NCBI GenBank assembly: GCA_030390025.1
Contig: CM059432.1
Span: 77,502,001-77,566,000, forward strand
Direction: 5' to 3'
From: Squalus acanthias
Taxonomy: Eukaryota
Length of the DNA: 64,000 nt
Part shown: positions 1 through 33,257 of the stretch, piece after piece
How the letters are laid out: the number at the start of each line of letters is the position of its first letter
Numbering within the stretch: position 1 is the stretch's first letter
The notes under the pieces: model-generated
The model's input: the letters and a program-made list of their open reading frames with translations, nothing else
What the model was told of the DNA's origin: nothing
Databases searched by the model: none
Program-made: the position numbers and the translations under genes

Positions 1-430
1 TGACCTGGCACTCGAGATAATCTATTCTTGTTTTAAGGTGACTGGAGATTTCCTGGCTTTCTTGGTGCAACTCATTTAACTTCTTAATGAGCACTTCCCC
101 TCCAGAAACCTTCTCATCCATTTCTCCCTCTAAATGACTGATTCGAGCTACTAGCGCTGTAATGGTCTGGTTTGAAATCTGAACCTGCCTTTTGTAACAC
201 ATAAGCCAGACTGCTTTCTCAAGTGTCTTTCTATGTTCTTTACTATCTGTCCACCTTTCGGCTGCCTCTAGCGGGCTTTTATCCGCTAACAATTCACTTA
301 TCCATTTCTTAGTTAAATTAACCTTTCCGAACACATAATCTGCTATCTTTTCCTGCATAACATTTCGTACAGTCATTCCAAAGTCTAACACACTACCCTC
401 TCGCTGCCAGTGTCCTGCCGCGGTCGCCAT
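1..430 (-). CDS. gag: 5' part of gag of the next tandem unit (truncated by window edge)
   Basis: Near-identical to 7685-8114; ATG at 430 corresponds to ATG at 8114 (offset 7684). Confidence 0.88.
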   Translation of the reverse strand, partial: MATAAGHWQREGSVLDFGMTVRNVMQEKIADYVFGKVNLTKKWISELLADKSPLEAAERWTDSKEHRKTLEKAVWLMCYKRQVQISNQTITALVARISHLEGEMDEKVSGGEVLIKKLNELHQESQEISSHLKTRIDYLECQV

Positions 431-549
431 TTTCTGTAAGGGATTCTGACCCTGCGTGTCTCGCAGCCTGTGAGATTCACGCGGCTCTGTGCAGCCTGTA
501 TGTCAGTGCGGGTCTAGGCCTTGTTGCCTGTTCTGGTCTCCAGCCAGTC

Positions 550-2090
550 TGGGAACACTAGACACACCTGTGAGTGGTTCGAATCACTCGCCCTTACGGT
601 TCTAGACACTGGACTTAGATGCGAGAGCAGTAATGGAGATGAAACTCATGTAGACTCGGTTGAATGGTACGAAATGGAAAATCTTTATTGCATGATACTT
701 AAGATTATGAAATACATGTCATAAGCACAGATTAATGACAGTACAATCTTACAAGCAGTTATATAGTCGATCTTAGGGAAACGAGGAACGAACGGCACAT
801 AGTAAATAGGGGCACACATTACAAATATCCTTAATCCTTAAACCCTCCCCTATCAATATCTATCCTAACTAGATTCGTAGGATTTCGAGACTCATGCTCA
901 CCACTCGTGATAACTCGGAGAAATTCCGAATAGCTGATCGGATGTTTTTCACCGCAGCACCCACGTGTCGGTCAGGAGATCTCCTGGTCCCACTTGTTTA
1001 CTTGCTTCTGCTGCTCCGGCTAGCAGGCTGGACCGTCTGCTGTGATGAAGACCTGTGTTGGTTGGTTTAACAGGTACTTTCCGAGCACAGTTGTCAATAT
1101 CATCGATGTGATATGTTCTTTGCAAGTTCGAAGAAGTCTTCCTGGCAAGGAAAACTTGGCTATTCGACCTACAGGCGCGGTCGGGATTTACTGACCGTGG
1201 CGATGGATATGGTCTTCCTCTCTTCTCATCTCATCTCATCTCATCTCGGGCCTTTGGTTCCGCTGCCAGTTACCAACATAGGTCTTCGTTACGCGACACG
1301 AGGTAGATCCGAATGGATCAGAAAGTTCAACAGTCTTTTTCAAAAAGGCAACAGGCAAGCAGGAGCCCGACTACGAGTACACAGGAGCAGCCACGAGGTT
1401 ACGAAATAAGATAAGAGCACAGGAGCAGCCACGATGATAAGAGTCGATCGGATAAGAGAAAGATGGACGGTTTGGAGCCTGCAATTATAGTGCAAAATCT
1501 TCCGTTTCCCGCCCAACCTTAATGTCCATTCTTTTGTTTAGGGTCTGGCGCTCAAATGTCTTGTATGGGTGATCTCCGTTCTTAATGGGTTTCGGGGCTA
1601 CTCGTAAATGTCTGAGTACCTGTTAATATTTCTCCCATTGTTAAATCGGTCGGTGTTCTCCCTGGAGGGGTTGTGGGGCTTCCAAGTGTTTTGTATAACT
1701 ACCTGCTAACGGCTCTCTCATCGTAGAGTCGTTGGGATTTTACATATTAATGTCTTTTGGATGGGCCCTTGATTACTCGGTACAATAGCTTTCATTTGTA
1801 CCTGGGAGACCGATTTCAGTATTTATGTGTATACTGCAAACCCATAATGTCTCGTGTATTATCTTCACTGTGCTGAATCTTAATCGATCTTGCACAAATG
1901 TTTATTGGAACGCCATCTTGTCTGCCTGTTGAAAAGTCTAGAATGTTCTGTCACGAGGTGCGGCGGCCATTTTACAGGCTGCTTGTGTCCACTTTAAACC
2001 TGGCAGCATTCTGCTGAAATAAAAGCTGTTTGAACGAAACTCTGTGTTTTCTCCTTATTAATAAAATCGCGATATATTGCGAATTCTACA
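550..2090 (-). repeat. LTR shared between tandem units (~1.5 kb; U5 end uncertain, ~550-569)
   Basis: Starts TGT at 2090 directly after PPT; AATAAA at 684-689 (minus); copy at ~8234-9775. 3' boundary is inferred only. Confidence 0.72.
684..689 (-). promoter_or_regulatory. Polyadenylation signal AATAAA in LTR (also 8368-8373)
   Basis: Plus-strand TTTATT about 120-135 nt from the inferred LTR 3' end. Confidence 0.6.
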
Positions 2091-2102
2091 GTCCCTCCTG
2101 TT
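2091..2102 (-). promoter_or_regulatory. Polypurine tract
   Basis: Minus strand AACAGGAGGGAC immediately precedes the TGT LTR start; absent next to the outer LTR at 9775. Confidence 0.7.
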
Positions 2103-2540
2103 GATGCGAATAACTCCGCTTATCGTATCAAAAATCATAGTGGTGAGCAATATTATCTCGATTTCTCTCCGAATCCAGCAAATTAATCCCATAACTTTAA
2201 CCTAGCTAGGGTCTCTGTGTCGTCCTCATTTCCCAAGAAAATTACATTTTATATCACCGTAGGCATTATTTGCCCTTAAACTTACACCACTTGTTTTCCT
2301 TCCCGGCGTAACCAGGCCGATGCCTCTCGTATCACCTGTATATTCATCTTTTATTCAGGGAAAGGAAAAACAAAACCCAAAACCAAACAATCAATTCTAA
2401 CTGTAACACCATCACCAAAATAATCAACACCAACTCTTAAAACATGTCGAGTTCCAAACGTATGTACAATCTCTGAAAATCATGATCGAGTACAAACTTC
2501 CGCGGCGCACGTGGCGAGCGGGAGTGACGCCATTTTCCGA

Positions 2541-4892
2541 TTACACGGTGCTTTCATCGTGCACGCGCACGTAACGTTCTCGCCACTCTCCCGTGTTTTC
2601 ATGCTTGGTGAGGCGTTTGTCTCTTTTACAATGTACGACCAATAGGTACACTACAATAAACACTTGGCATACGACTAAAATGTGGGAGGCTATTCTGATC
2701 CATGAAGGCACTTCAATATTAGTGAACAGATTCCACCACGGTGGAACTACTATATCCAAAATGTCTGTTCCTATTTCGACAGTTTTCTGCTCTAATGTGT
2801 AAAAATGTTTCTGTGACACCGCGACGGCTTTTAAAAGTTTGGTGAGGTGTTCAGGGAGAGGGGGAATGAGGTATCCAAAATGCGCGACGAATCGCTGCAA
2901 GTCGGTGAAATTCTCTTTTACTGTGAGATGAACAGTGGATGGTTCAGGGATTGGGATAATTCGCTGTTGTGCTACTTGAACTTCCGCCCTGGGTTTAAAA
3001 CAGAAACTGCTGTCACTCACCGGACACCGGCTACGGTTTCCATGCTGGTAGTGTTGCGCTGCAGTGGTAACACAATATGTTCCACCCCCGATGTATGCTA
3101 CCTGCGGAGGCACATGATCTTGTGCCATTGCCTCCATGGTGCAATTCATGGACTTGGCGCCAGTCGTTCTGAACCCGCACTGTGGTGTTAAAAAGGCATT
3201 CAAGTGCTGGGGGCACAGTATTATGTGTGCTCCCCTGCCACGACAACCAGAGAGATCTGTACCTGTCATCGTTTGCTCCCAGCGGATGACGTAAGGTGGA
3301 ACCGCTGCGTAACGAATGTGGGCTCCCCCCTGAATGACACCAATGTTCTCTACCCGATATACCGGGGCGGGCTTTGCTGTGTCGCCCAAAACCGGCATGC
3401 GTAATACTATTCCCATAATAGTATGGTTTGAACGTCCGCAGTCCACGGGGACTGGGTAAGCTTCTGAAGCTAGCCTGAGCTGGCACGGACTTAATGCGTT
3501 CTGAAAAGGGTGGAGCGCCCGCAGGTGTTTGTTACTTATCCAGGACGGAACCAAACCTTGTTTTAAATCCTCCAAATTACTGCGGCCCTCGCCCAGTAAC
3601 CACGCCCCGTAAAGCACGCACACCTCGTTCTGCGCAGCTTGATCGGATGCATTCCGATCTTCCCTAATCAGGGCATTTACCGTCTTTGCATGTTTCTCCA
3701 ACTCTGCTATAATTTCCTTTAAATGGAGAGTCATGGCTTGGTCCTCGTGTAAACCTGACCCTACCACTTTATTCTCATCTGTTAGAATGTCTTTTAATTG
3801 TGTCTTTAAACCATTAATCTGGGTCTGCAGCTCCACACTGTCTAGAGCGTTGACCACAGATGTACCCGTGTTAAAAGCAGTGAACGCATCGTTCACCAAA
3901 CCCCTTCTTTGCCTCCCTGCTTGATTCAGAACTTCCTGTGGTGCGGTGTACAAACTTGTTTTATCAATTTCCGCGAAATCGAATTCGTAAAATTGTCTGA
4001 ACATCTTGGTCAACAGGACCTGATACAACTGTTCCGTCTTTTTGGGGCACCACTCTGGTAACCGCACCTCGGTGAGATTTAAAATCACCGAGGCCACCGC
4101 GTAATGTACTCCCTGAAATAGTATCTGGTCTGTGGGGACCAGTACCAAACCATTCCCGGGTCCCTTACTAGTTTTAGGGCACCCTTCTTCCTCAGCTAGA
4201 ACCACCGGAATCGTGGGCGGGGCTTTGCGTGGGCGCGTAATGAGCTCAGTGGCATTTACTGGGATCGGGGAGAATGGGGCTCCGCACCCCCTGGTGCTCG
4301 CATCCCACCTCATCCCCTGTCCGTTATCCTGCCATTGATTAATGAAAAATATGGAGATGCCTTTGGGGCAAACGTACTTTGACCCCCACATACATACATA
4401 AATTCCCTCGTCCGGTTCCCACCATTTGTCCCAACAGACTTTCACTTGTCCGTTTGTCCCCGTAATTGTCCGATGGGTATTATTACCCAGTCGTTCCCAC
4501 TCGACCGAAGAGTTCCTCATAGTTTTGCTCAGCTTTCGCAGCCACCACCATCGGCTCAATGGGACCTTCCCACTACAAGTCAAACAAATCCGTTTGCCGA
4601 CGGTGACGCTAATCCTGGGTGCGATGATCCTTACTTTGGGGCACATTAAAGAAGTCTCTTTGTAGGCAAACCCCGATGTGCTAGAATACTCCGTTGAGTT
4701 CGTTCCCAGCCATCCTGGCCACCTTCCCTTGTGGAAATAGGTGCTGGTCTCCTCTGCCTCCCGTCTTCCGGTCCCATCCACCGCGATGGGGGCCGTGTCC
4801 CCGGAACATCCAAACACCACGACATCCTTGGTGCGGCCTCGATAGGCCAATCCACATCCGATTGCCACGAGCAATACTAGAATTCGTTCCAT
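2541..4892 (-). CDS. env: Envelope glycoprotein, ~783 aa from ATG 4892: signal peptide, Ig-like domain, furin site, F-like class I fusion subunit, TM anchor
   Basis: MERILVLLVAIGCGLA signal-like segment; LTC..WWW..DEGIYVC Ig motif; RQRR/GLVNDAFTAF at 3903-3914; heptad repeats; Cys-rich region; C-terminal hydrophobic ILVVCQVFIVVYLLVV; many N-x-S/T sites. ORF track opens at GTG 5075. Confidence 0.85.
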   Translation of the reverse strand: MERILVLLVAIGCGLAYRGRTKDVVVFGCSGDTAPIAVDGTGRREAEETSTYFHKGRWPGWLGTNSTEYSSTSGFAYKETSLMCPKVRIIAPRISVTVGKRICLTCSGKVPLSRWWWLRKLSKTMRNSSVEWERLGNNTHRTITGTNGQVKVCWDKWWEPDEGIYVCMWGSKYVCPKGISIFFINQWQDNGQGMRWDASTRGCGAPFSPIPVNATELITRPRKAPPTIPVVLAEEEGCPKTSKGPGNGLVLVPTDQILFQGVHYAVASVILNLTEVRLPEWCPKKTEQLYQVLLTKMFRQFYEFDFAEIDKTSLYTAPQEVLNQAGRQRRGLVNDAFTAFNTGTSVVNALDSVELQTQINGLKTQLKDILTDENKVVGSGLHEDQAMTLHLKEIIAELEKHAKTVNALIREDRNASDQAAQNEVCVLYGAWLLGEGRSNLEDLKQGLVPSWISNKHLRALHPFQNALSPCQLRLASEAYPVPVDCGRSNHTIMGIVLRMPVLGDTAKPAPVYRVENIGVIQGGAHIRYAAVPPYVIRWEQTMTGTDLSGCRGRGAHIILCPQHLNAFLTPQCGFRTTGAKSMNCTMEAMAQDHVPPQVAYIGGGTYCVTTAAQHYQHGNRSRCPVSDSSFCFKPRAEVQVAQQRIIPIPEPSTVHLTVKENFTDLQRFVAHFGYLIPPLPEHLTKLLKAVAVSQKHFYTLEQKTVEIGTDILDIVVPPWWNLFTNIEVPSWIRIASHILVVCQVFIVVYLLVVHCKRDKRLTKHENTGEWRERYVRVHDESTV

Positions 4893-5180
4893 CCTTCCTT
4901 GGTTCCTGTGATCAGATAGAATGAGGTAGCCAGCCTCGCAAGAGTCTCTGGCTTTTGTGAAGGGTGAGCGGGTCCCCTGACCTCGCCTCACGTAAACTTC
5001 AACGTTCGCTGAATAAACTTTAACTAAACCTATCTTTAAAGCTCCCATCATTTTATCGTTTTCTGTTAAAAACACTACAATCTTAACCTTATCAAAAAAC
5101 TATAAACTTAACCTTGAACTATTAACTTAAAACTTAAAACTTATAACTTTACAGTGCCGCCCGTTCTCAGGGCGGCCCCT

Positions 5181-6302
5181 TTAAATTCTGAGAAGGCTGC
5201 TGCGAGCTCTTCCCGACGGTGGGAGGGCACTGACCCTTCCCTCTGATCTGCCGCAGCCTGTTGCTGCTGCGATGTGGCCGGCCTGTATCTGGGTTATCTT
5301 AACCTTAACTCTACGCCTTGGGGCAGTCTGGGGACATGACCACATCCTCCTGGGCTGGGGTTCTCTACTTGACCTACGGGGAGTTGCTATGGGCGGGGGT
5401 TCCGTGACGGACGGACCGGGTTCCGAGACTTCCATCGGGATGACCTGGGGTTCCATCACAGTCGCTGGCTCCGCCTCCGCTGACTCCGCCTCCCTAACCT
5501 CGGGGCTTGCAGTTTGTGGCCCCGCCCTGCTTGGCCCAGCAGGCGGCCCTTCACTCGTGATCTCTGCCTCCCCCGAGGACGGGACGTTCAAAGCGGGCGG
5601 CCACATCTCTGGGAGCCACACCGGTACTCTCTGTGCTCCCATAGCGGCTGGCCCTGCCTCCCCTAGCTCCTCCCTCCTGTCTTCGGGACCTGCAGCTTGT
5701 GTGTCCACCCTGTGTGGATCTCTACCTGCAGCCCCCGTTCCCTCCATATCGTAAATGGGACCGTTCCTGAGAAACCACCCGTCGTCATCACTATTCTCAT
5801 CTGCACTGTCCTCATCTGACCCGGGTACCCTGAATTCTTCCTCATCTAACCCCCAATTCCAGAAAAACGCTGCATGATCTTCCGGGATGTCCCTTCCCCT
5901 GATGCAAGCTGCTATGCCTGCCTGTGTGCCTTGTGGTCCTACCTGGGGCTGTGCTTTCCCACTGGCGGGATTTACCCCTGTAGTTTTCCCTTGCGCACCT
6001 GGCTGGTACAGTTTGCATTGGTTTACATCCTCATACTCCCGGCTTTTGGCTACCCTGTAGGCTGCTTTTATCTCTCTAAGCTGCGCTTCTAGCCTGAGCA
6101 CGTCTAACTTTCCCATTGATCGGGCGTTCTCCTCCCGCAGGGCCTGCTCTCTAAGCTGCCCTTCCAGCCCATCTATTTTCCCTATTAAGCGGGCGTTCTC
6201 CTCCCGCAAGGCCTGCTCTTTTAACCTGGCCTCCTCACCGCAGACCCCCTCCTGTGCGTGTCTTTTAAAAGGACACAGGTAGGCAGGCTGCGTGGGCTCT
6301 AG
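5181..6302 (-). CDS. ORFX: unknown coiled-coil + acidic + Pro-rich protein, in frame with gag (probable readthrough extension)
   Basis: Open from the codon after the gag TGA (6302) to TAA at 5181; the ORF-track start at 6209 is TTG, not ATG. Confidence 0.75.
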   Translation of the reverse strand, partial: LEPTQPAYLCPFKRHAQEGVCGEEARLKEQALREENARLIGKIDGLEGQLREQALREENARSMGKLDVLRLEAQLREIKAAYRVAKSREYEDVNQCKLYQPGAQGKTTGVNPASGKAQPQVGPQGTQAGIAACIRGRDIPEDHAAFFWNWGLDEEEFRVPGSDEDSADENSDDDGWFLRNGPIYDMEGTGAAGRDPHRVDTQAAGPEDRREELGEAGPAAMGAQRVPVWLPEMWPPALNVPSSGEAEITSEGPPAGPSRAGPQTASPEVREAESAEAEPATVMEPQVIPMEVSEPGPSVTEPPPIATPRRSSREPQPRRMWSCPQTAPRRRVKVKITQIQAGHIAAATGCGRSEGRVSALPPSGRARSSLLRI

Positions 6303-8114
6303 TCATTGGGTACTATTAGACGGTCCTGCGGCACCTACGGGGCCGGTTGCGACCGCCACCTGTCCACGCGCATTCAAGATTAGATTGCGCATGGCTCCTA
6401 ACACTACTTCGAGGTCGTCAGGAGGGGTGGGTGCCTTAGCTTCCTTAGCCGGGACAGGCGCCTGGGCTCGGACCGCGGGATTTTTATCCTTGGAATCCTT
6501 CCAAGGGTTCCTGCAATGCTTGCGCCAGTGCCCTGTCTTCCCACACCCGTAACAAGCATTACCTGCCTGTGGGGCGCGATTACCCTCCTGATGCCACTCT
6601 CTTTGATACGGGGCTGCGGGTCGTACCTCATGTACTCTTCCCTTAAGGGGACGTGTTGCCATACCCCTTATATTGCGATATCCTAACGTGAGTCGATTCA
6701 AGACCGACTCTTCCGTAATGTTGGGGTCATTGGGATCAAACCATGCTTTTGCCTGCTCTCTGACGGCTGGTAAACTGTTGGCTATTATGCACCTAAGCCA
6801 ATGAGTTAAAGCGGTGCCTTCCACATCTTCGCGCTCTGGCGCACCTAGGCAGCTGCGCTCATAAACTGGCCACAGCCTGTCGGCAAAAACCTTCGGGGGT
6901 TCTCCCTCCATCTGCACTGTCTGTCCCACTCTAGCAAACGGACCTTCATCGTTCGCCCCCAACACTTCCAGGACCTCATCCCTCAATTCCTCATAAGTCT
7001 TGGTTCCCCTCTTGCTCTCGCCTGAGAGACACTGAAGAACCGAGCTGTCTAGTGAGAACAGCAGCATTTTTGCTGTCTCCCCATCATCGCAGCCGTTAAT
7101 GGCTGCGGCTTGCTCAACTTCTCTGAAATGTACGGAAGGGTCGTCTGACTCGGTCAGCTTCCGTACGTGATTTATCATAGCTCTCAGCTGGTGTGAGCTG
7201 TGAGGCAACACCAGCTGTCCGAGGAGATCCCCCGGTTCTTCCCCACCGTTTCTGTTTGGGCCCCTTTTAATGCCCGTTACTGGATACAACGGTCCCTTTC
7301 CTACTTCTTTTTCAATGGGCTCTTTTGTTTCTTCCATTGCTTCCTCCCTTACCCAGGTTTCCGAATAGCTGGGTGGCGCGGAGGGCGCAGTGGCTACTAC
7401 TTCTTCTGCTTTGCTTGGTGGGGATTTCTTAAACTTCTCACTTACTAGCGGCTGGTGTGCTGACGGACTGATCAGGCACACCATGCCGTTCGCTTTGTTT
7501 ACGGCCTTCTTGAGGTGCTCTATCTCCCTTTGGCAGGCGCTATGGTCGGCTCCCTCAAACTTATCCTCAAGGGCCAACTTATATGCCGCCCTAACCCCCG
7601 TTAAGCTCTCTTCTTGAGTTCTTATCTGGGCAGCTTGGCGGTTACATCTTTCCTTTAACCTGCTCTCATTCAACTTTGCCTCAGTGACCTGGCACTCGAG
7701 ATAATCTATTCTTGTTTTAAGGTGACTGGAGATTTCCTGGCTTTCTTGGTGCAACTCATTTAAATTCTTAATGAGCACTTCCCCTCCAGAAACCTTCTCA
7801 TCCATTTCTCCCTCTAAATGACTGATTCGAGCTACTAGCGCTGTAATGGTCTGGTTTGAAATCTGAACCTGCCTTTTGTAACACATAAGCCAGACTGCTT
7901 TCTCAAGTGTCTTTCTATGTTCTTTACTATCTGTCCACCTTTCGGCTGCCTCTAGCGGGCTTTTATCCGCTAACAATTCACTTATCCATTTCTTAGTTAA
8001 ATTAACCTTTCCGAACACATAATCTGCTATCTTTTCCTGCATAACATTTCGTACAGTCATTCCAAAGTCTAACACACTACCCTCTCGCTGCCAGTGTCCT
8101 GCCGCGGTCGCCAT
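6303..8114 (-). CDS. gag: Gag-like protein, 603 aa
   Basis: N-terminal coiled coil, PPSY late-domain-like motif, capsid-like central region, CCHC knuckle CYGCGKTGHWRKHC at 6513-6554; first ORF after the LTR. Confidence 0.88.
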   Translation of the reverse strand: MATAAGHWQREGSVLDFGMTVRNVMQEKIADYVFGKVNLTKKWISELLADKSPLEAAERWTDSKEHRKTLEKAVWLMCYKRQVQISNQTITALVARISHLEGEMDEKVSGGEVLIKNLNELHQESQEISSHLKTRIDYLECQVTEAKLNESRLKERCNRQAAQIRTQEESLTGVRAAYKLALEDKFEGADHSACQREIEHLKKAVNKANGMVCLISPSAHQPLVSEKFKKSPPSKAEEVVATAPSAPPSYSETWVREEAMEETKEPIEKEVGKGPLYPVTGIKRGPNRNGGEEPGDLLGQLVLPHSSHQLRAMINHVRKLTESDDPSVHFREVEQAAAINGCDDGETAKMLLFSLDSSVLQCLSGESKRGTKTYEELRDEVLEVLGANDEGPFARVGQTVQMEGEPPKVFADRLWPVYERSCLGAPEREDVEGTALTHWLRCIIANSLPAVREQAKAWFDPNDPNITEESVLNRLTLGYRNIRGMATRPLKGRVHEVRPAAPYQREWHQEGNRAPQAGNACYGCGKTGHWRKHCRNPWKDSKDKNPAVRAQAPVPAKEAKAPTPPDDLEVVLGAMRNLILNARGQVAVATGPVGAAGPSNSTQ

Positions 8115-8233
8115 TTTCTGTAAGGGATTCTGACCCTGCGTGTCTCGCAGCCTGTGAGATTCACGCGGCTCTGTGCAGCCTGTATGTCAGTGCGGGTCTA
8201 GGCCTTGTTGCCTGTTCTGGTCTCCAGCCAGTC

Positions 8234-9775
8234 TGGGAACACTAGACACACCTGTGAGTGGTTCGAATCACTCGCCCTTACGGTTCTAGACACTGGACTT
8301 AGATGCGAGAGCAGTAATGGAGATGAAACTCATGTAGACTCGGTTGAATGGTACGAAATGGAAAATCTTTATTGCATGATACTTAAGATTATGAAATACA
8401 TGTCATAAGCACAGATTAATGACAGTACAATCTTACAAGCAGTTATATAGTCGATCTTAGGGAAACGAGGAACGAACGGCACATAGTAAATAGGGGCACA
8501 CATTACAAATATCCTTAATCCTTAAACCCTCCCCTATCAATATCTATCCTAACTAGATTCGTAGGATTTCGAGACTCATGCTCACCACTCGTGATAACTC
8601 GGAGAAATTCCGAATAGCTGATCGGATGTTTTTCACCGCAGCACCCACGTGTCGGTCAGGAGATCTCCTGGTCCCACTTGTTTACTTGCTTCTGCTGCTC
8701 CGGCTAGCAGGCTGGACCGTCTGCTGTGATGAAGACCTGTGTTGGTTGGTTTAACAGGTACTTTCCGAGCACAGTTGTCAATATCATCGATGTGATATGT
8801 TCTTTGCAAGTTCGAAGAAGTCTTCCTGGCAAGGAAAACTTGGCTATTCGACCTACAGGCGCGGTCGGGATTTACTGACCGTGGCGATGGATATGGTCTT
8901 CCTCTCTTCTCATCTCATCTCATCTCATCTCATCTCGGGCCTTTGGTTCCGCTGCCAGTTACCAACATAGGTCTTCGTTACGCGACACGAGGTAGATCCG
9001 AATGGATCAGAAAGTTCAACAGTCTTTTTCAAAAAGGCAACAGGCAAGCAGGAGCCCGACTACGAGTACACAGGAGCAGCCACGAGGTTACGAAATAAGA
9101 TAAGAGCACAGGAGCAGCCACGATGATAAGAGTCGATCGGATAAGAGAAAGATGGACGGTTTGGAGCCTGCAATTATAGTGCAAAATCTTCCGTTTCCCG
9201 CCCAACCTTAATGTCCATTCTTTTGTTTAGGGTCTGGCGCTCAAATGTCTTGTATGGGTGATCTCCGTTCTTAATGGGTTCGGGGCTACTCGTAAATGTC
9301 TGAGTACCTGTTAATATTCTCCCATTGTTAAATCGGTCGGTGTTCTCCCTGGAGGGGTTGTGGGGCTTCCAAGTGTTTTGTATAACTACCTGCTAACGGC
9401 TCTCTCATCGTAGAGTCGTTGGGATTTTACATATTAATGTCTTTTGGATGGGCCCTTGATTACTCGGTACAATGGCTTTCATTTGTACCTGGGAGACCGA
9501 TTTCAGTATTTATGTGTATACTGCAAACCCATAATGTCTCGTGTATTATCTTCACTGTGCTGAATCTTAATCGATCTTGCACAAATGCTTATTGGAACGC
9601 CATCTTGTCTGCCTGTTGAAAAGTCTAGAATGTTCTGTCACGAGGTGCGGCGGCCATTTTACAGGCTGCTTGTGTCCACTTTAAACCTGGCAGCATTCTG
9701 CTGAAATAAAAGCTGTTTGAACGAAACTCTGTTTTCTCCTTATTAATAAAATCGCGATATATTGCGAATTCTACA
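8234..9775 (-). repeat. 5' LTR of the element (U5 end uncertain)
   Basis: Identity to the first copy ends exactly at ...GAATTCTACA (9775), followed by CR1 sequence. Confidence 0.75.
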
Positions 9776-10625
9776 CCTTATATCTGTGTCCTCTGGTTGC
9801 CGACCCTTCTGCCACTAGAAACAGTCTCTCCTTATTTACTTTATCAAACCCATTCATGATTTTGAACACCTCTATCAAATTTCCTATTAACCTTCTCTGC
9901 TCTAAGGAGAACAATCCCAGCTGCTCCAGACCCTCCACATAACTGAAGTCTCTCATCATTGGTACAATTCTAGTAAATCACTTCTGTGCCCTCTTCAAGG
10001 CCTTGAAATCTTTCCTAAAGTGTGGTGCTCAGAATTGAACACAATATTCCAGCTGAGGTCTAACCAGTGTTTTATAAAGGCTTTGCATAACTTCCTTGCT
10101 TTTGTTCTCTATTGCTCTATTAATAAAGCCAAGGATCCCATATTCCTTTTTAACAGGCTTCTCAACTTGTCTTTCCATCTTCAATGATTTGTGTACATAC
10201 ATTCCCAGGTCTCTCTGTTCCTGCACCCCCTTTAATATTATACCATTTATTTTCTATTGCTTCTCCTCATTCTTCTCCCAAAATGTATCACTTCACACTT
10301 CTCTGTGTTAAATTTCATCTGCCATGTGTCTTCCCATTTCACCAGTCTGTCTATGTCCTCCTGAAATCTGGTAGTACCCTACTCATTGTTTACTACATTT
10401 CCGAGTTTCGTGTCATCTGCAAACATTGAAATTATGATCTGTATGCCCAAGTCTAGATCATTAATATATATCAAAAAGAGCAGTGATCCTAATACTGACC
10501 CCTGCGGAACACCACTAGATACCTCCCTCCTGTCTGACAAACAACTGTTCACCACTACTCTGCTTTCAGTCCCTTAGCCAATTTTGTATTTGTGCTGCCA
10601 CTGACCATTTAATCCCATGGGCTTT
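9776..10625 (-). mobile_element. CR1 LINE ORF2 3' fragment, degenerate (insertion target of the LTR element)
   Basis: Peptides LVRPQLEYCVQF, LGLFSLEQRRL, TRGHRYKV. Confidence 0.88.
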
Positions 10626-10667
10626 ATATGAGTGTAATGTCCAATTTAGGTTCCCATGTTTACAACA

Positions 10668-11722
10668 GTAACAACAACCTGCATTTATATAGCACCTTTA
10701 ATGTAGTAAAACATCCCAAGGCACTTCACATGAGCGATTACCAACCAAATTTTGACACTGAACCACATAAGGAGATAGTAGGATAGGTGAGGTAGGTTTT
10801 AAGGCGTGTCTTAAAGGATGAGAGAGAGGTAGAGAGACAAAAATGTTTGGGAATGGAATTCCAGAGCTGAGGGCCTAGGCAGGTGAAGGCACGGCCGCCA
10901 ATGGTGGAGTGAAGAAAATCAGGGCTGCTCAAGGCCAGAATTGGAGGAGCACAGAGTTCTCGGAGGGTTTTAAGGCTGGAGGAGGTTGCAGAGATAGAGA
11001 TATGGGTTTCAGCAGCAGATGAGCTGAGGCAGGGGTGGAGATGGACAACGTTACAGAGGTAGAAGTAGGAGGTCTTGGTGATGGAGAGGATATGGGGTCC
11101 GAAGCTCAACTCAGGGTCAAATAGGACACCACGTTTGCAAACAGTCTGGTTCATCCTCAGACAGCGGCCAGGGAGAGGGATGAAGTTGGTGGCTAGGGAA
11201 CGGAGCTTGTGCTGGGACCAAAGACAATAGCTTCGTAGTTCCCAATATTTAATTGGAGGAGATTTCTACTCATCCTATACTGGAAGTCTGATAAGCTGTG
11301 TGACAAATCAGAAATGAGAAGTCGCACAACACCAGGTTATAGTCCAACAGATTTATTTAAAATTACAAGCTTTCGGAGCTATCGCCCCTTCTTCAGGTAC
11401 AGTTACAATGAGTGAATCTACAAAAGTTCACAGAATATAAACACAGAAAATGCAGAGATACAATCTTTCCTTACACTCTGCATTTTCTGTGTTTATATTC
11501 ACTTGTAGATTCACTTATTGTAACTGTACCTGAAGAAGGGGCGATAGCTCCGAAAGCTTGTAATTTTAAATAAATCTGTTGGACTATAACCTGGTGTTGT
11601 GCGACTTCTCATTTTTGTCCACCCCAGTCCAACGCCGGCATCTCCGCATCATGACAAATCAGAGGCAGTGGAGGGGTCAAGAGAGGTGGGGTTGAGGTGG
11701 AGCTGGGTGTCGTCAGCATACA
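10668..11722 (-). mobile_element. L2-like LINE 3' fragment interrupted at 11313-11651
   Basis: GVLFDPELSF..HI..ITKT and IGGRAF..GPQLWNS peptides; GCTATATAAATGCAGGTTGTTGTT tail. Confidence 0.75.
11313..11651. mobile_element. Palindromic Penelope-derived insertion with 12-bp target duplication
   Basis: Arms 11312-11457 and 11477-11614 are inverted copies; TGACAAATCAGA at 11301-11312 and 11652-11663; hammerhead-like core in each arm. Confidence 0.7.
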
Positions 11723-11771
11723 GCGTATTTACAAAGACCTACAGAGACAATGGCAAAGATTCAAACATAGA

Positions 11772-12660
11772 GGGGGAGAAATTCAGTATCGCCCCATTTG
11801 GGGCGCAATTATCGGCCGGGCGCAAAGATTAGCGCCTGGCACTAATTATCGCCACCGACTGCAAACTTGACTTTTATCGCCCCTGGAGGTGATTGGAGCG
11901 CTAAATCAGGCGCTTCACACCTGTCTTAAGGCGCAAAGGCCGAGGAGCGAGGCGCTACCTCAGAGCGCTGGCGAAGCTCATGTGATGTCAGTCAGCAATG
12001 GAACACACACACAATGGCGCAGGCCAGTTCTTAAAGGGAGGGTTGATCTTGCTTTCCATCCACATCCTGCTCATTGCAGCCTTGATTCTCGGCCTGGAGA
12101 TACCTGCACATCAAATCTGCTGGAAAGAACAATGGAGAGTACCAGGGAAAGAGCTCAGAGTGCAGCCCCCAGAGTCTCTTCTAAATCGATACAAGGAAGG
12201 GCAAATCAAAATGAACCTGCAAAGTGCTGCTCAGTACCCAAAACTCCTTCACACAGCATTGAATCTCTCCAGAAGTCTCTCTCTCTCTCTCAGAATGCGT
12301 GGTTCAAAAATGTCACCAACAATAAAAGGCAGGAAGCGGTCGCCTTTAAATAGCGCTCCCCCAGTCCCTTCCTGACTGCAAAACGCTCCCCTCAACCTGT
12401 CGTTGCTAGTGGCAGGTGGTAAGGCAGGGGGTGCCACTCAATATCCGCTCCGGGGCGATACCGGGGCGTTGCGCACTCGACTGACGTCACGATCTGCCGG
12501 CGCAGGAGATCGTGGCGGTAGTGTTTAGCGCTGCCGCAAAATGTCGTTAATTTCGCGAGCGGCGCAAACATCGCCGCGCCCGGGGCGCTAGTTGCTTTGC
12601 GCCCCATTAGCGCCCTCTTAAGGCGCTAACGGGAGGCGCAACCAACTGAATTTTTCCCAC
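11772..12660. mobile_element. Non-autonomous PIF/Harbinger-type element (MITE), copy 1
   Basis: TIR GGGGGAGAAATTCAG/CTGAATTTTTCCCAC; closely similar copy at 32366-33257. Confidence 0.8.
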
Positions 12661-16799: not shown

Positions 16800-17126
16800 T
16801 TGAGAGGTCGCACAACACCAGGTTATAGTCCAACAGTTTTATTTGAAATCACAAGCTTTCGGAACTATCGCTCCTTCCTCAGGTGAAGTAAATTGGATAC
16901 AGAATCGTCAGAGCATATATAGATGGAAAAAAAAGCATGTGTACTTTACAATTGCAGACCAATAAATTAAATCATCCTGATTATCTGCCGAGGTGTGATA
17001 AAGTTAATTAAGTCAGCCAGGAAGGTACCACATCAAAAGACATAGCAAGATACAACTGAGACAATGAGGAGTCTGCGACTTCACCTCATTGTCTCAGTTG
17101 TATCTTGCTATGTCTTTTGATGTGGT
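16800..17126 (-). mobile_element. Penelope-type terminus with hammerhead motif and 43-bp inverted repeat
   Basis: 16803-16886 is homologous to the arm at 11315-11398; perfect IR 17027-17069/17084-17126. Confidence 0.62.
16849..16886 (-). ncRNA. Minimal type I hammerhead ribozyme
   Basis: TCAC-CTGAGGA-AGGAGC GATA GTTCC-GAAA-GCTT-GTGA: conserved core, helix I TCAC/GTGA, helix II, palindromic helix III. Confidence 0.62.
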
Positions 17127-31400: not shown

Positions 31401-32365
31401 GCAATAAATGCAAAGCAAGTGGTGTTTCTCCTTCCAGTTTTCTCTTCCTCCCTCTCCTGAAGGCCGTGACTCATGCCGGGCATAGTTTGCACAGGCACCA
31501 ACACCTCTTCAGTATCCTCATTTCATATGAGGCCAGACAGTTACACCTGGAATTACCTTAGGGGGTTCTCCTGATCCACTGCATCTCCAGCAGAAGATTG
31601 GCGGATATCCAGGCTAAACTATCTAAACAGGGTTTCTGTTAAGTTATAGCAGCTGATCGAGAGAACACCCCGAGGAAATTCCATGCATTAGCGTTAGTAG
31701 GGTACTTAGCACTGGGGGAAATCACAGCCAAGTCTAATCTGTCCTTACCCAACATATACACTTCCCAGCAGTCACTCTACAGTGACCAGCAGCTTTTCCC
31801 CTCCCAGGGACACTGGGCCAATTATTGTGACTGCCCCACCCTCCATTTGACAAGTTTTCTAATTTCAACCCTCCTTTTCGTGGAGCAGCAGCTGATATCC
31901 ACTCGACAGCTCACAGTGGCAATATGACTGAGATTATAAGCTCATTGTGTGGGGAGATCACAGATATCAAGCCACATCTTACTGCTGCATGGCGCACTGC
32001 AACAACAACAACAACTTGCATTTATATAGCACCTTTAACGTAGTAAAATGTTCCAAGGTGCTTCACAGGAGTGATTATCAAACAAAATTTGCACTGAGCC
32101 ACATAAGGAGATATTGGCCCAGATTTTGCGGTGGATAATGACAGCAAACTGTCAGCATTCGCCATCATTACACCTCTGACACTGACCGCAACTTCAGTAT
32201 TCAGCGCATGTGCATCTAAACATGGAAATCCTAAAGTTGCGGTCAGTCATTCACTGCTCCGACACAGGCTGTGCTGTGGACCTCCTCCCCCATAGACTGC
32301 AATCAGTGGAACTGACCAAAACTTGGGTATTTCCATGGTAATATTGCTGTTAAATACCACATTAA

Positions 32366-33257
32366 GGGGGAGAAATTCATTATCGCCCCATTTGGGGCGC
32401 AATTATCGGCTGGGCGCAAAGATTAGCGCCTGGCGCTAATTATCACCACCAACTGCAAACTTGACTTTTATCGCCCCTGGAGGTGATTGGAGCACTAAAT
32501 CAGGCGCTTCACACCTGTCTTAAGGCGCAAAGGCCGAGGAGCGAGGCGCTACCTCAGAGCACTGGCGAAGCTCATGTAATGTCAGTCAACAATGGAACAC
32601 ACACACAGTGACACGGGCCAGTTCTTAAAGGGGATGGTTAATCTTGCTTTCCATCCACATCCTGCTCATTGCAGCCTTGAATCTCGGCCTGGAGAGACCT
32701 GCACATCAAATCTGCTGGAAAGATCAATGGAGAGTACCAGGCAAAGAGCTCAGAGTGCAGCCCCCACAGTCTCTTCTAAATCGATACAAGGAATGGCAAA
32801 TCAAAATGAACCTGCAAAGTGCTGCTCAGCACCCAAAATTCCTTCACACAACGTTGAATCTCTCAGAATTCTCTCTCTCTCTCGCTCAGAATGCGTAGTT
32901 CAAAAATGGCACCAACAATAAAAGGCAGGAAGCGGTCACCTTTAAATAGCGCTCCCCATTTCCCTTCATGACTGCAGTACGCTCCCCTCAACCTGTCGTT
33001 GCTAGCGTCAGGCGGTAAGGCAGGGGGCGCCACTCAATATCCGCTCCGGGGCGATACCGGGGCGTTGCGCACTCGACTGACGTCACGATCTGCGGGCGCA
33101 GGAGATCGTGGTGGTAGTGTTTAGCGCCGCCGCAAAATGTCTAGTTAATTTCGCGAGCGGCGCAAACTTCGCCGCGCCTTGGCGCTAGATGCTTTGTGCC
33201 CCATTAGCGCCCTCTTAAGGCGCTAACGGGAGGCGCAACCAACTGAATTTTTCCCCC
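32366..33257. mobile_element. Non-autonomous PIF/Harbinger-type element, copy 2
   Basis: TIR GGGGGAGAAATTCA/TGAATTTTTCCCCC with TAA TSD (32363-32365, 33258-33260). Confidence 0.85.

Follow-up and report, generated by a model that had tools for sequence, protein, structure and literature searches.

A pol-less morph keeping gag and env in a young lokiretrovirus-like family of Squalus acanthias

Introduction

We analysed a 64,000-nt stretch of the Squalus acanthias genome (GCA_030390025.1, contig CM059432.1, positions 77,502,001 to 77,566,000; hereafter the window) that carries an endogenous retrovirus (ERV) with gag, env and, between them, an open reading frame termed ORFX, but no pol core. Retroviral partners lacking pol have been described before; the present one stands out by combining complete gag and env genes with an open frame behind the gag stop codon, to be reached by readthrough.

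The closest described systems fall into three groups (here and below, statements on cited sources refer to their accessible parts). Lokiretroviruses have as hallmarks a dual RNase H and an Env like the fusion protein (F) of paramyxoviruses and pneumoviruses (PMC7947760, PMC9040795). The pol-bearing relatives of the present element (hereafter helpers) resemble them in having gag, pol and env between long terminal repeats (LTRs), a tether plus new RNase H, and a Mononegavirales F-like Env with an RXKR-type cleavage site (PMC7947760); their nearest named Pol relatives are 'NYNRIN-like' proteins. In its accessible part, that report lists five host classes, of which cartilaginous fish are not one, does not mention sharks, and describes no pol-less morph with gag and env. 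In the present family, no smc gene was seen between pol and env. Zebrafish BHIKHARI elements (Bik-1 and Bik-2) are likewise young, pol-less relatives of lokiretroviruses with an intact coiled-coil Gag, and need a partner's Pol (bioRxiv 10.1101/2024.03.25.586437). Bik-1 has one long frame and Bik-2 lacks pol and env, whereas the present morph keeps env and a readthrough frame; the Bik-1 helper was not found in the reference, whereas the present helpers are abundant.

The third group consists of mammalian elements. Mouse IAP 1Delta1 has likewise lost internal pol and has one open gag-pol-derived frame; it is mobilised in trans, and its fusion protein is reported to help in cis (PMC6466679). It has lost part of gag and lacks env or a foreign insert, whereas the present gag is whole and any fusion depends on readthrough. 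In bovine ERVK[2-1-LTR] D-type elements, ETn/MusD and RecKoRV (PMC10924933), the centre is likewise swapped for another retroelement, with trans-complementation and recombination between morphs, but only portions of gag and env are kept; here both genes are complete, and the replacement segment keeps the reading frame. In the openly readable literature (including accessible parts of PMC12440569, PMC10089650, PMC10435555 and PMC5512871; Repbase and Dfam were outside the scope), no such element and no shark lokiretrovirus was found.

Results

A unit without pol core and its pol-bearing relatives

A first-pass annotation, made from the sequence alone, had described a complete unit from 9775 to about 550 that encodes Gag, ORFX and Env without frameshifts and lacks Pol enzymes. 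The three frames indeed contain no frameshift and no internal stop, although the unit ends at 434 rather than at about 550. Pfam also bore out the absence of Pol: no protease, reverse transcriptase (RT), RNase H or integrase domain was found in the unit's three proteins, the sole call being a weak zinc knuckle in Gag. The interval 2091-8230 is wholly accounted for by full-length alignment to pol-bearing copies, and Gag is 99–100% identical to the open reading frame that precedes protease-RT in these.

The annotation had further proposed a defective retrovirus with Gag and Env of its own and Pol borrowed from a helper, which called for independent insertions of the same layout and for a pol-bearing relative with the same LTR and gag. 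Both were found, the latter at ~99% identity. A 19-mer spanning the junction of pol start and insert had 979 exact matches in the genome (reversed control, 0), and the pol-bearing junctions had 613 (5' junction, one subfamily) and 1482 (3' junction, both subfamilies allowed), all of these being exact-match tallies rather than curated copy numbers. A numerical excess of pol-less copies (979 vs 613) was considered and dropped, because further helper subfamilies escape the pattern behind the count of 613. A genome search with the unit gave eight loci with the gag-ORFX-env layout at 97–99% identity, and 11 further loci that align only from ORFX nt 278 on. The DNA upstream of these partial matches contains integrase, in the ORFX frame or frameshifted, in 10/11 cases and an LTR in the other (L019). 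A 4.1-kb stretch of one pol-bearing copy reads gag, a TGA-CTAG stop, then open pol, and the helper pol domains are ordered protease, RT, degenerate RNase H, second RNase H, integrase and SH3-like. The pol-bearing morph thus holds gag, pol (with all four enzymes) and env between LTRs, and the window copy is without the pol core.

Distinct 4-bp target duplications flank all five pol-less copies for which both ends were in hand, and the four LTR pairs compared (the window and three more) differ by 1–5 positions per ~1640 bases, which shows that the pol-less copies were inserted independently and very recently. The junctions are also spanned by contigs from two public runs (the 3' junction under organism label C, the 5' under label E; the labels are possibly one species). 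Contigs of two runs taken to be RNA, though possibly DNA, cover all 30 bins and show no splice joint to env, which speaks neither for nor against expression. With no RT or integrase of their own, many integrations, and an autonomous partner with the same LTRs and cis signals, these copies constitute a non-autonomous ERV morph.

Matches to the pol-less junction can lie ~7.7 kb apart (G000:C1, near 143657930, 143665653 and 143673371) and matches to the pol-bearing junction ~11 kb apart (G000:C3, near 117795033, 117806108 and 117817131), a spacing that suggests frequent head-to-tail tandem arrays of either morph. Nested insertion also seems frequent in the family, with copies lying inside or against others in L007/L022, L010/L020 and L019, including an older relative with env at 83–91% identity. 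Rows left out of the analyses below were L057 (alignment, tree and indel counts), L062 (alignment and insert tally) and L019 (helper sets).

ORFX is a pol remnant around a foreign, in-frame insert

ORFX, which the annotation had called novel, proved mostly not to be: 292 of the 373 codons come from pol, three quarters of the frame being the C-terminal tail of Pol. It consists of 11 codons of the pol start, 244 nt of foreign DNA encoding an 81-codon coiled coil, and the last 281 codons of pol. A free-standing gene was also excluded, as the frame follows the gag TGA in phase, is mostly pol and has no ATG before codon 63.

The insert has no match at the DNA level in the rest of the element. Its protein, however, can be aligned to the coiled coil in the element's own Gag (score 65, reached by 0/1000 shuffles), and for a longer variant of the insert the corresponding score was reached by 1/2000 shuffles and by 8/2000 shuffles of seven-residue blocks. 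Given this alignment, the gag gene of a related family is the probable source of the insert, with the reservation that coiled coils align easily. No donor turned up in the window, the fetched family loci or the protein set compared, and ORFX residues 1–130 had no scoring homologue among 556 candidate proteins (205–653 aa). The longer variant, with 11 additional codons and joined further down the pol tail in frame, occurs in L050, L051, L054, L061, L065 and L066 (and L057), and begins in 7/20 sampled copies. The tails of L052 and L062 are of a third and more distant type (branch length 0.18); in L062 the repeat inside the insert is present as a single unit, and this copy may be closer to the original cassette.

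The frame behind the gag stop is kept open

We sampled copies without selection by taking the first 20 junction matches on contig C1. ORFX is open to its native stop in 18 (368–397 aa); one of the remaining two enters unrelated DNA and the other stops after 98 codons. At least three junction variants are present in this sample, every one in frame. The gag stop context is TGA-CTAG in 18/20, and the 5' region of env is reached in 13/20 within the 1.4 kb taken. Net ORFX length change is divisible by three in 26/29 copies, compared with 3/13 for LTRs; net length was scored because the event-level count (12/21 shared events in frame) is raised artificially where alignments split in diverged stretches. 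UGA-CUAG gives at least ~1.3% readthrough in human genes (PMC13517186), and low readthrough can block nonsense-mediated decay (PMC5360307). The expected product of ORFX, judging by this context, is a minor Gag-X fusion. A candidate stimulating hairpin behind the gag stop was dropped (z -1.46, equalled by 17/200 shuffles, absent from the helper).

Exchange between morphs, and selection on gag, env and ORFX

The family comprises two subfamilies (gag 89% and tail 83–85% identical), and six loci fetched from the second included three pol-less and three pol-bearing copies. The insert is ~96% identical across subfamilies and 94–100% conserved over diverged tails. A tree of the tails of 31 pol-less and 13 pol-bearing copies requires 12 changes of morph, and a single clade of the 13 pol-bearing tails was rejected (approximately unbiased test, p-AU 1e-10). 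Pol-less and pol-bearing copies therefore recombine; the simplest reading of these sequences would be one origin of the cassette followed by repeated template switching in particles containing both RNAs.

The ratio of non-synonymous to synonymous changes (dN/dS), which the annotation had named as a check, indicated purifying selection on gag and env (~0.1). On variants shared among nine pol-less copies, it was 0.12 in gag (34 synonymous, 14 non-synonymous) and 0.09 in env (21 synonymous, 6 non-synonymous). Values for the ORFX tail were 0.92 between subfamilies and 0.94 between helpers, and for the insert 0.71 (11 synonymous, 26 non-synonymous variants). In ORFX, the frame is maintained while its residues drift near-neutrally.

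The family looks lokiretroviral

Helper pol has a dual RNase H (RT_RNaseH at aa 470–602, RNase_H at aa 649–793). The structural model of Env (mean predicted local distance difference test score 58.5, core higher) had as best Foldseek matches the F proteins of human parainfluenza virus 3 (E 1.4e-10) and respiratory syncytial virus, with E of 1e-10 to 1e-9, and its top atlas match was Fusion_gly (fusion glycoprotein F0, 0.94). At the sequence level, Pfam PF00523 did not match Env and a PDB search with Env alone gave no match; a profile of aligned Env proteins matched foamy virus Env weakly in the PDB (E 6e-4). The nearest named relatives of Env are from skate (76%) and sawshark (53–59%). For RT-RNase H they are frog 'NYNRIN-like' proteins (44–45%, E ~1e-154, vs 1e-51 for gypsy-type), in a comparison that contained no labelled lokiretrovirus references; lokiretroviral integrase is close to CGIN1/NYNRIN, two names for one gene. 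Given the dual RNase H and the F-like Env, the family looks lokiretroviral. A weak Ig-like signal was also seen at Env aa 141–220 (window 4409-4631; Pfam Ig_3, E 0.41), where the model has beta strands of low to moderate confidence.

Discussion

We consider it probable, with moderate confidence, that the window copy belongs to a non-autonomous, helper-dependent morph of a young lokiretrovirus-like ERV in which translating X aids the RNA. A single recombination would have swapped protease, RT, both RNase H domains and the integrase core (~3.6 kb) for an in-frame piece of a related gag. The resulting RNA would retain both LTRs, the primer site and the polypurine tract, all observed in the copies, and could express the whole Gag and Env that it is seen to encode. 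Occasional readthrough of TGA-CTAG would yield Gag-X, just as the helper must make Gag-Pol. Where a pol-bearing copy is co-expressed, its Gag-Pol would co-package, reverse-transcribe and integrate the pol-less RNA; mobilisation in this way is suggested by the target duplications, the shared LTRs and the lack of own enzymes. Recombination with helpers, to which the mixed trees attest, would move the pol/X cassette among gag, tail and env backgrounds, and own Gag and Env may favour the RNA in cis during packaging and spread between cells. The X frame most likely stays open because its translation helps the RNA, by escape from nonsense-mediated decay or by a cis effect like that of IAP 1Delta1; an effect on the RNA is favoured here because the frame is kept while the residues are not.

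Several observations weigh against this explanation. Most tail indels are common to helpers, in which Pol needs the frame, and in-frame events specific to pol-less copies number only about three; young copies would be mostly open in any case. The eight full-length loci are best BLAST matches, thus biased to similar copies; among them gag is open in seven, ORFX in six, env in five and all three in three. The dN/dS of env in ten pol-bearing copies (0.06) is at the same level as in pol-less ones, and gag and env may owe their purifying signal to recombination with helpers instead of to selection on pol-less genomes. The selection argument is weaker for this, as clean gag and env can be re-imported. 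Some regions counted by junction matches may be present as both haplotypes, and at 979 pol-less against 1482 helper matches any cis advantage is not large.

An alternative is a passive hitchhiker whose own proteins are irrelevant, its gag, tail and env being intact solely through youth and recombination with helpers, with the in-frame insert a founder accident. The intermingled tail tree, the like env dN/dS of both morphs, the neutral-like ORFX and an LTR divergence below 0.4% all fit, but the three pol-less-specific length events each recur in several copies and all keep the frame, the TGA-CTAG context is kept in 18/20 copies, and 4.3 kb of gag and env remains undamaged, in contrast to the bovine D-type morph, which lacks any intact frame (PMC10924933); we regard this alternative as unlikely, though a serious one. 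More doubtful is a functional Gag-X, whose extra Gag-like coiled coil and Pol tail would let it assemble together with helper Gag-Pol, or recruit it, and thereby draw pol-less RNA into enzyme-bearing particles. The alignment of the insert to the element's own Gag coiled coil, the absence of stops from codons 1–82 in 30 copies and the conservation of the insert over diverged tails speak for it; yet the insert's dN/dS is not clearly below 1, the tail is neutral-like even among helpers, and a single recent origin would equally yield high insert identity. We hold as speculative, and at least as doubtful, a two-component population in which pol-less genomes give capsid and envelope and pol-bearing ones enzymes, the pol/X cassette is balanced across subfamilies and host species, and Gag-X, bearing a second Gag-type coiled coil where the enzymes were, captures helper Gag-Pol into particles containing the pol-less RNA.

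The annotation's other suggestion, a particle-forming module under host selection, fared poorly, the copies being dispersed, very young and mixed among helpers. Youth and high copy number do not in themselves exclude co-option, because development is reported to require Bhikhari, itself a lokiretrovirus family that is young and pol-less, and retention by the host has been proposed for its Gag in zebrafish (bioRxiv 10.1101/2024.03.25.586437). Such retention is nevertheless very improbable here: replication accounts for the selection signals, complete helpers provide the same Gag and Env, and nothing singles out the window locus, which sits in a fragment of a long interspersed nuclear element (LINE), in a tandem with a broken neighbour. 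A domesticated gene would be a single conserved locus with decayed mobility signals, whereas there are ~1000 dispersed young copies with intact LTRs. That the locus is a one-off deletion of an ordinary provirus or an assembly artefact is barely conceivable: a near-perfect tandem is a form prone to misassembly, but the 979 junction matches over many contigs and the distinct target duplications rule out a one-off deletion, and junction-bridging contigs come from independent public runs.

Our preferred explanation, a helper-dependent morph that gains from translating X, bears on a cis effect so far known mainly from mouse IAP 1Delta1. With ~1000 pol-less and ~1500 pol-bearing very young copies, the effect of translating a defective retroviral frame is testable by population genetics alone. 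The family would also place a very recent lokiretrovirus-like expansion probably in a cartilaginous fish, and offers the type of helper missing for zebrafish Bhikhari. If pol-less genomes do contribute Gag and Env, the relation would resemble division of labour more than pure parasitism.

Features of the locus and minor observations

The features of the element are collected in Table 1. The primer-binding site and gag restart behind the second LTR, so the locus is a head-to-tail tandem with one common LTR. The LTR pair differs by two substitutions in 1652 bases, and the two units by three differences in 2086 aligned bases of overlap. In the second unit, ORFX is open and env is broken at nt 1529, beyond the window. 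The primer-binding-site context after the 5' LTR is identical in 8/8 loci (L001-L008).

Table 1. Positions of the element's features in the window.
Feature	Position	Strand	Remarks
5' LTR	8119..9775	-	1657 nt, TGTA...TACA; sits in LINE fragment; same ends flank 4-bp target duplications at other loci
Putative primer-binding site	8097..8113	-	Begins TGG, 5 nt past LTR; overlaps first gag ATG
gag	6303..8114	-	603 aa; N-terminal coiled coil, capsid region, single CCHC knuckle
TGA-CTAG gag stop	6299..6305	-	Known readthrough context; same in pol-bearing copies, with pol in frame behind
ORFX	5181..6302	-	373 codons, open
Pol start, 11 codons	6270..6302	-	27/33 bases as in helper
Insert, 244 nt	6026..6269	-	Stands for ~3.6 kb of pol; coiled coil with internal repeat, similar to N-terminal Gag coiled coil of a related family
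Pol end, 281 codons	5181..6025	-	End of integrase SH3-like domain plus acidic, proline-rich tail; 97–99% identical to pol end of L009-L018
env	2541..5051	-	836 aa (first ATG) or 783 aa (signal-peptide ATG at 4892); RQRR cleavage site, heptad helices, transmembrane helix; predicted paramyxovirus/pneumovirus F-like fold
Short polypurine tract	2092..2099	-	Seen in sequence; kept in other copies
Second LTR	434..2090	-	Common to both tandem units
Second tandem unit, start	1..433	-	Primer-binding site and gag; runs on past window through ORFX into env

Rfam (window 1-12000) and ARAGORN gave no match. The long LTR (8119-9775) contains stop-to-stop frames of 93–100 aa, for which coding is otherwise unsupported. 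Elsewhere in the window, near-perfect inverted repeats lie at 11309-11617 (115-nt arms, 98%) and 17027-17126 (43-nt arms, 100%), and an element of ~780 nt occurs twice, at 11765-12545 and 32359-33141, with 94–95% identity.

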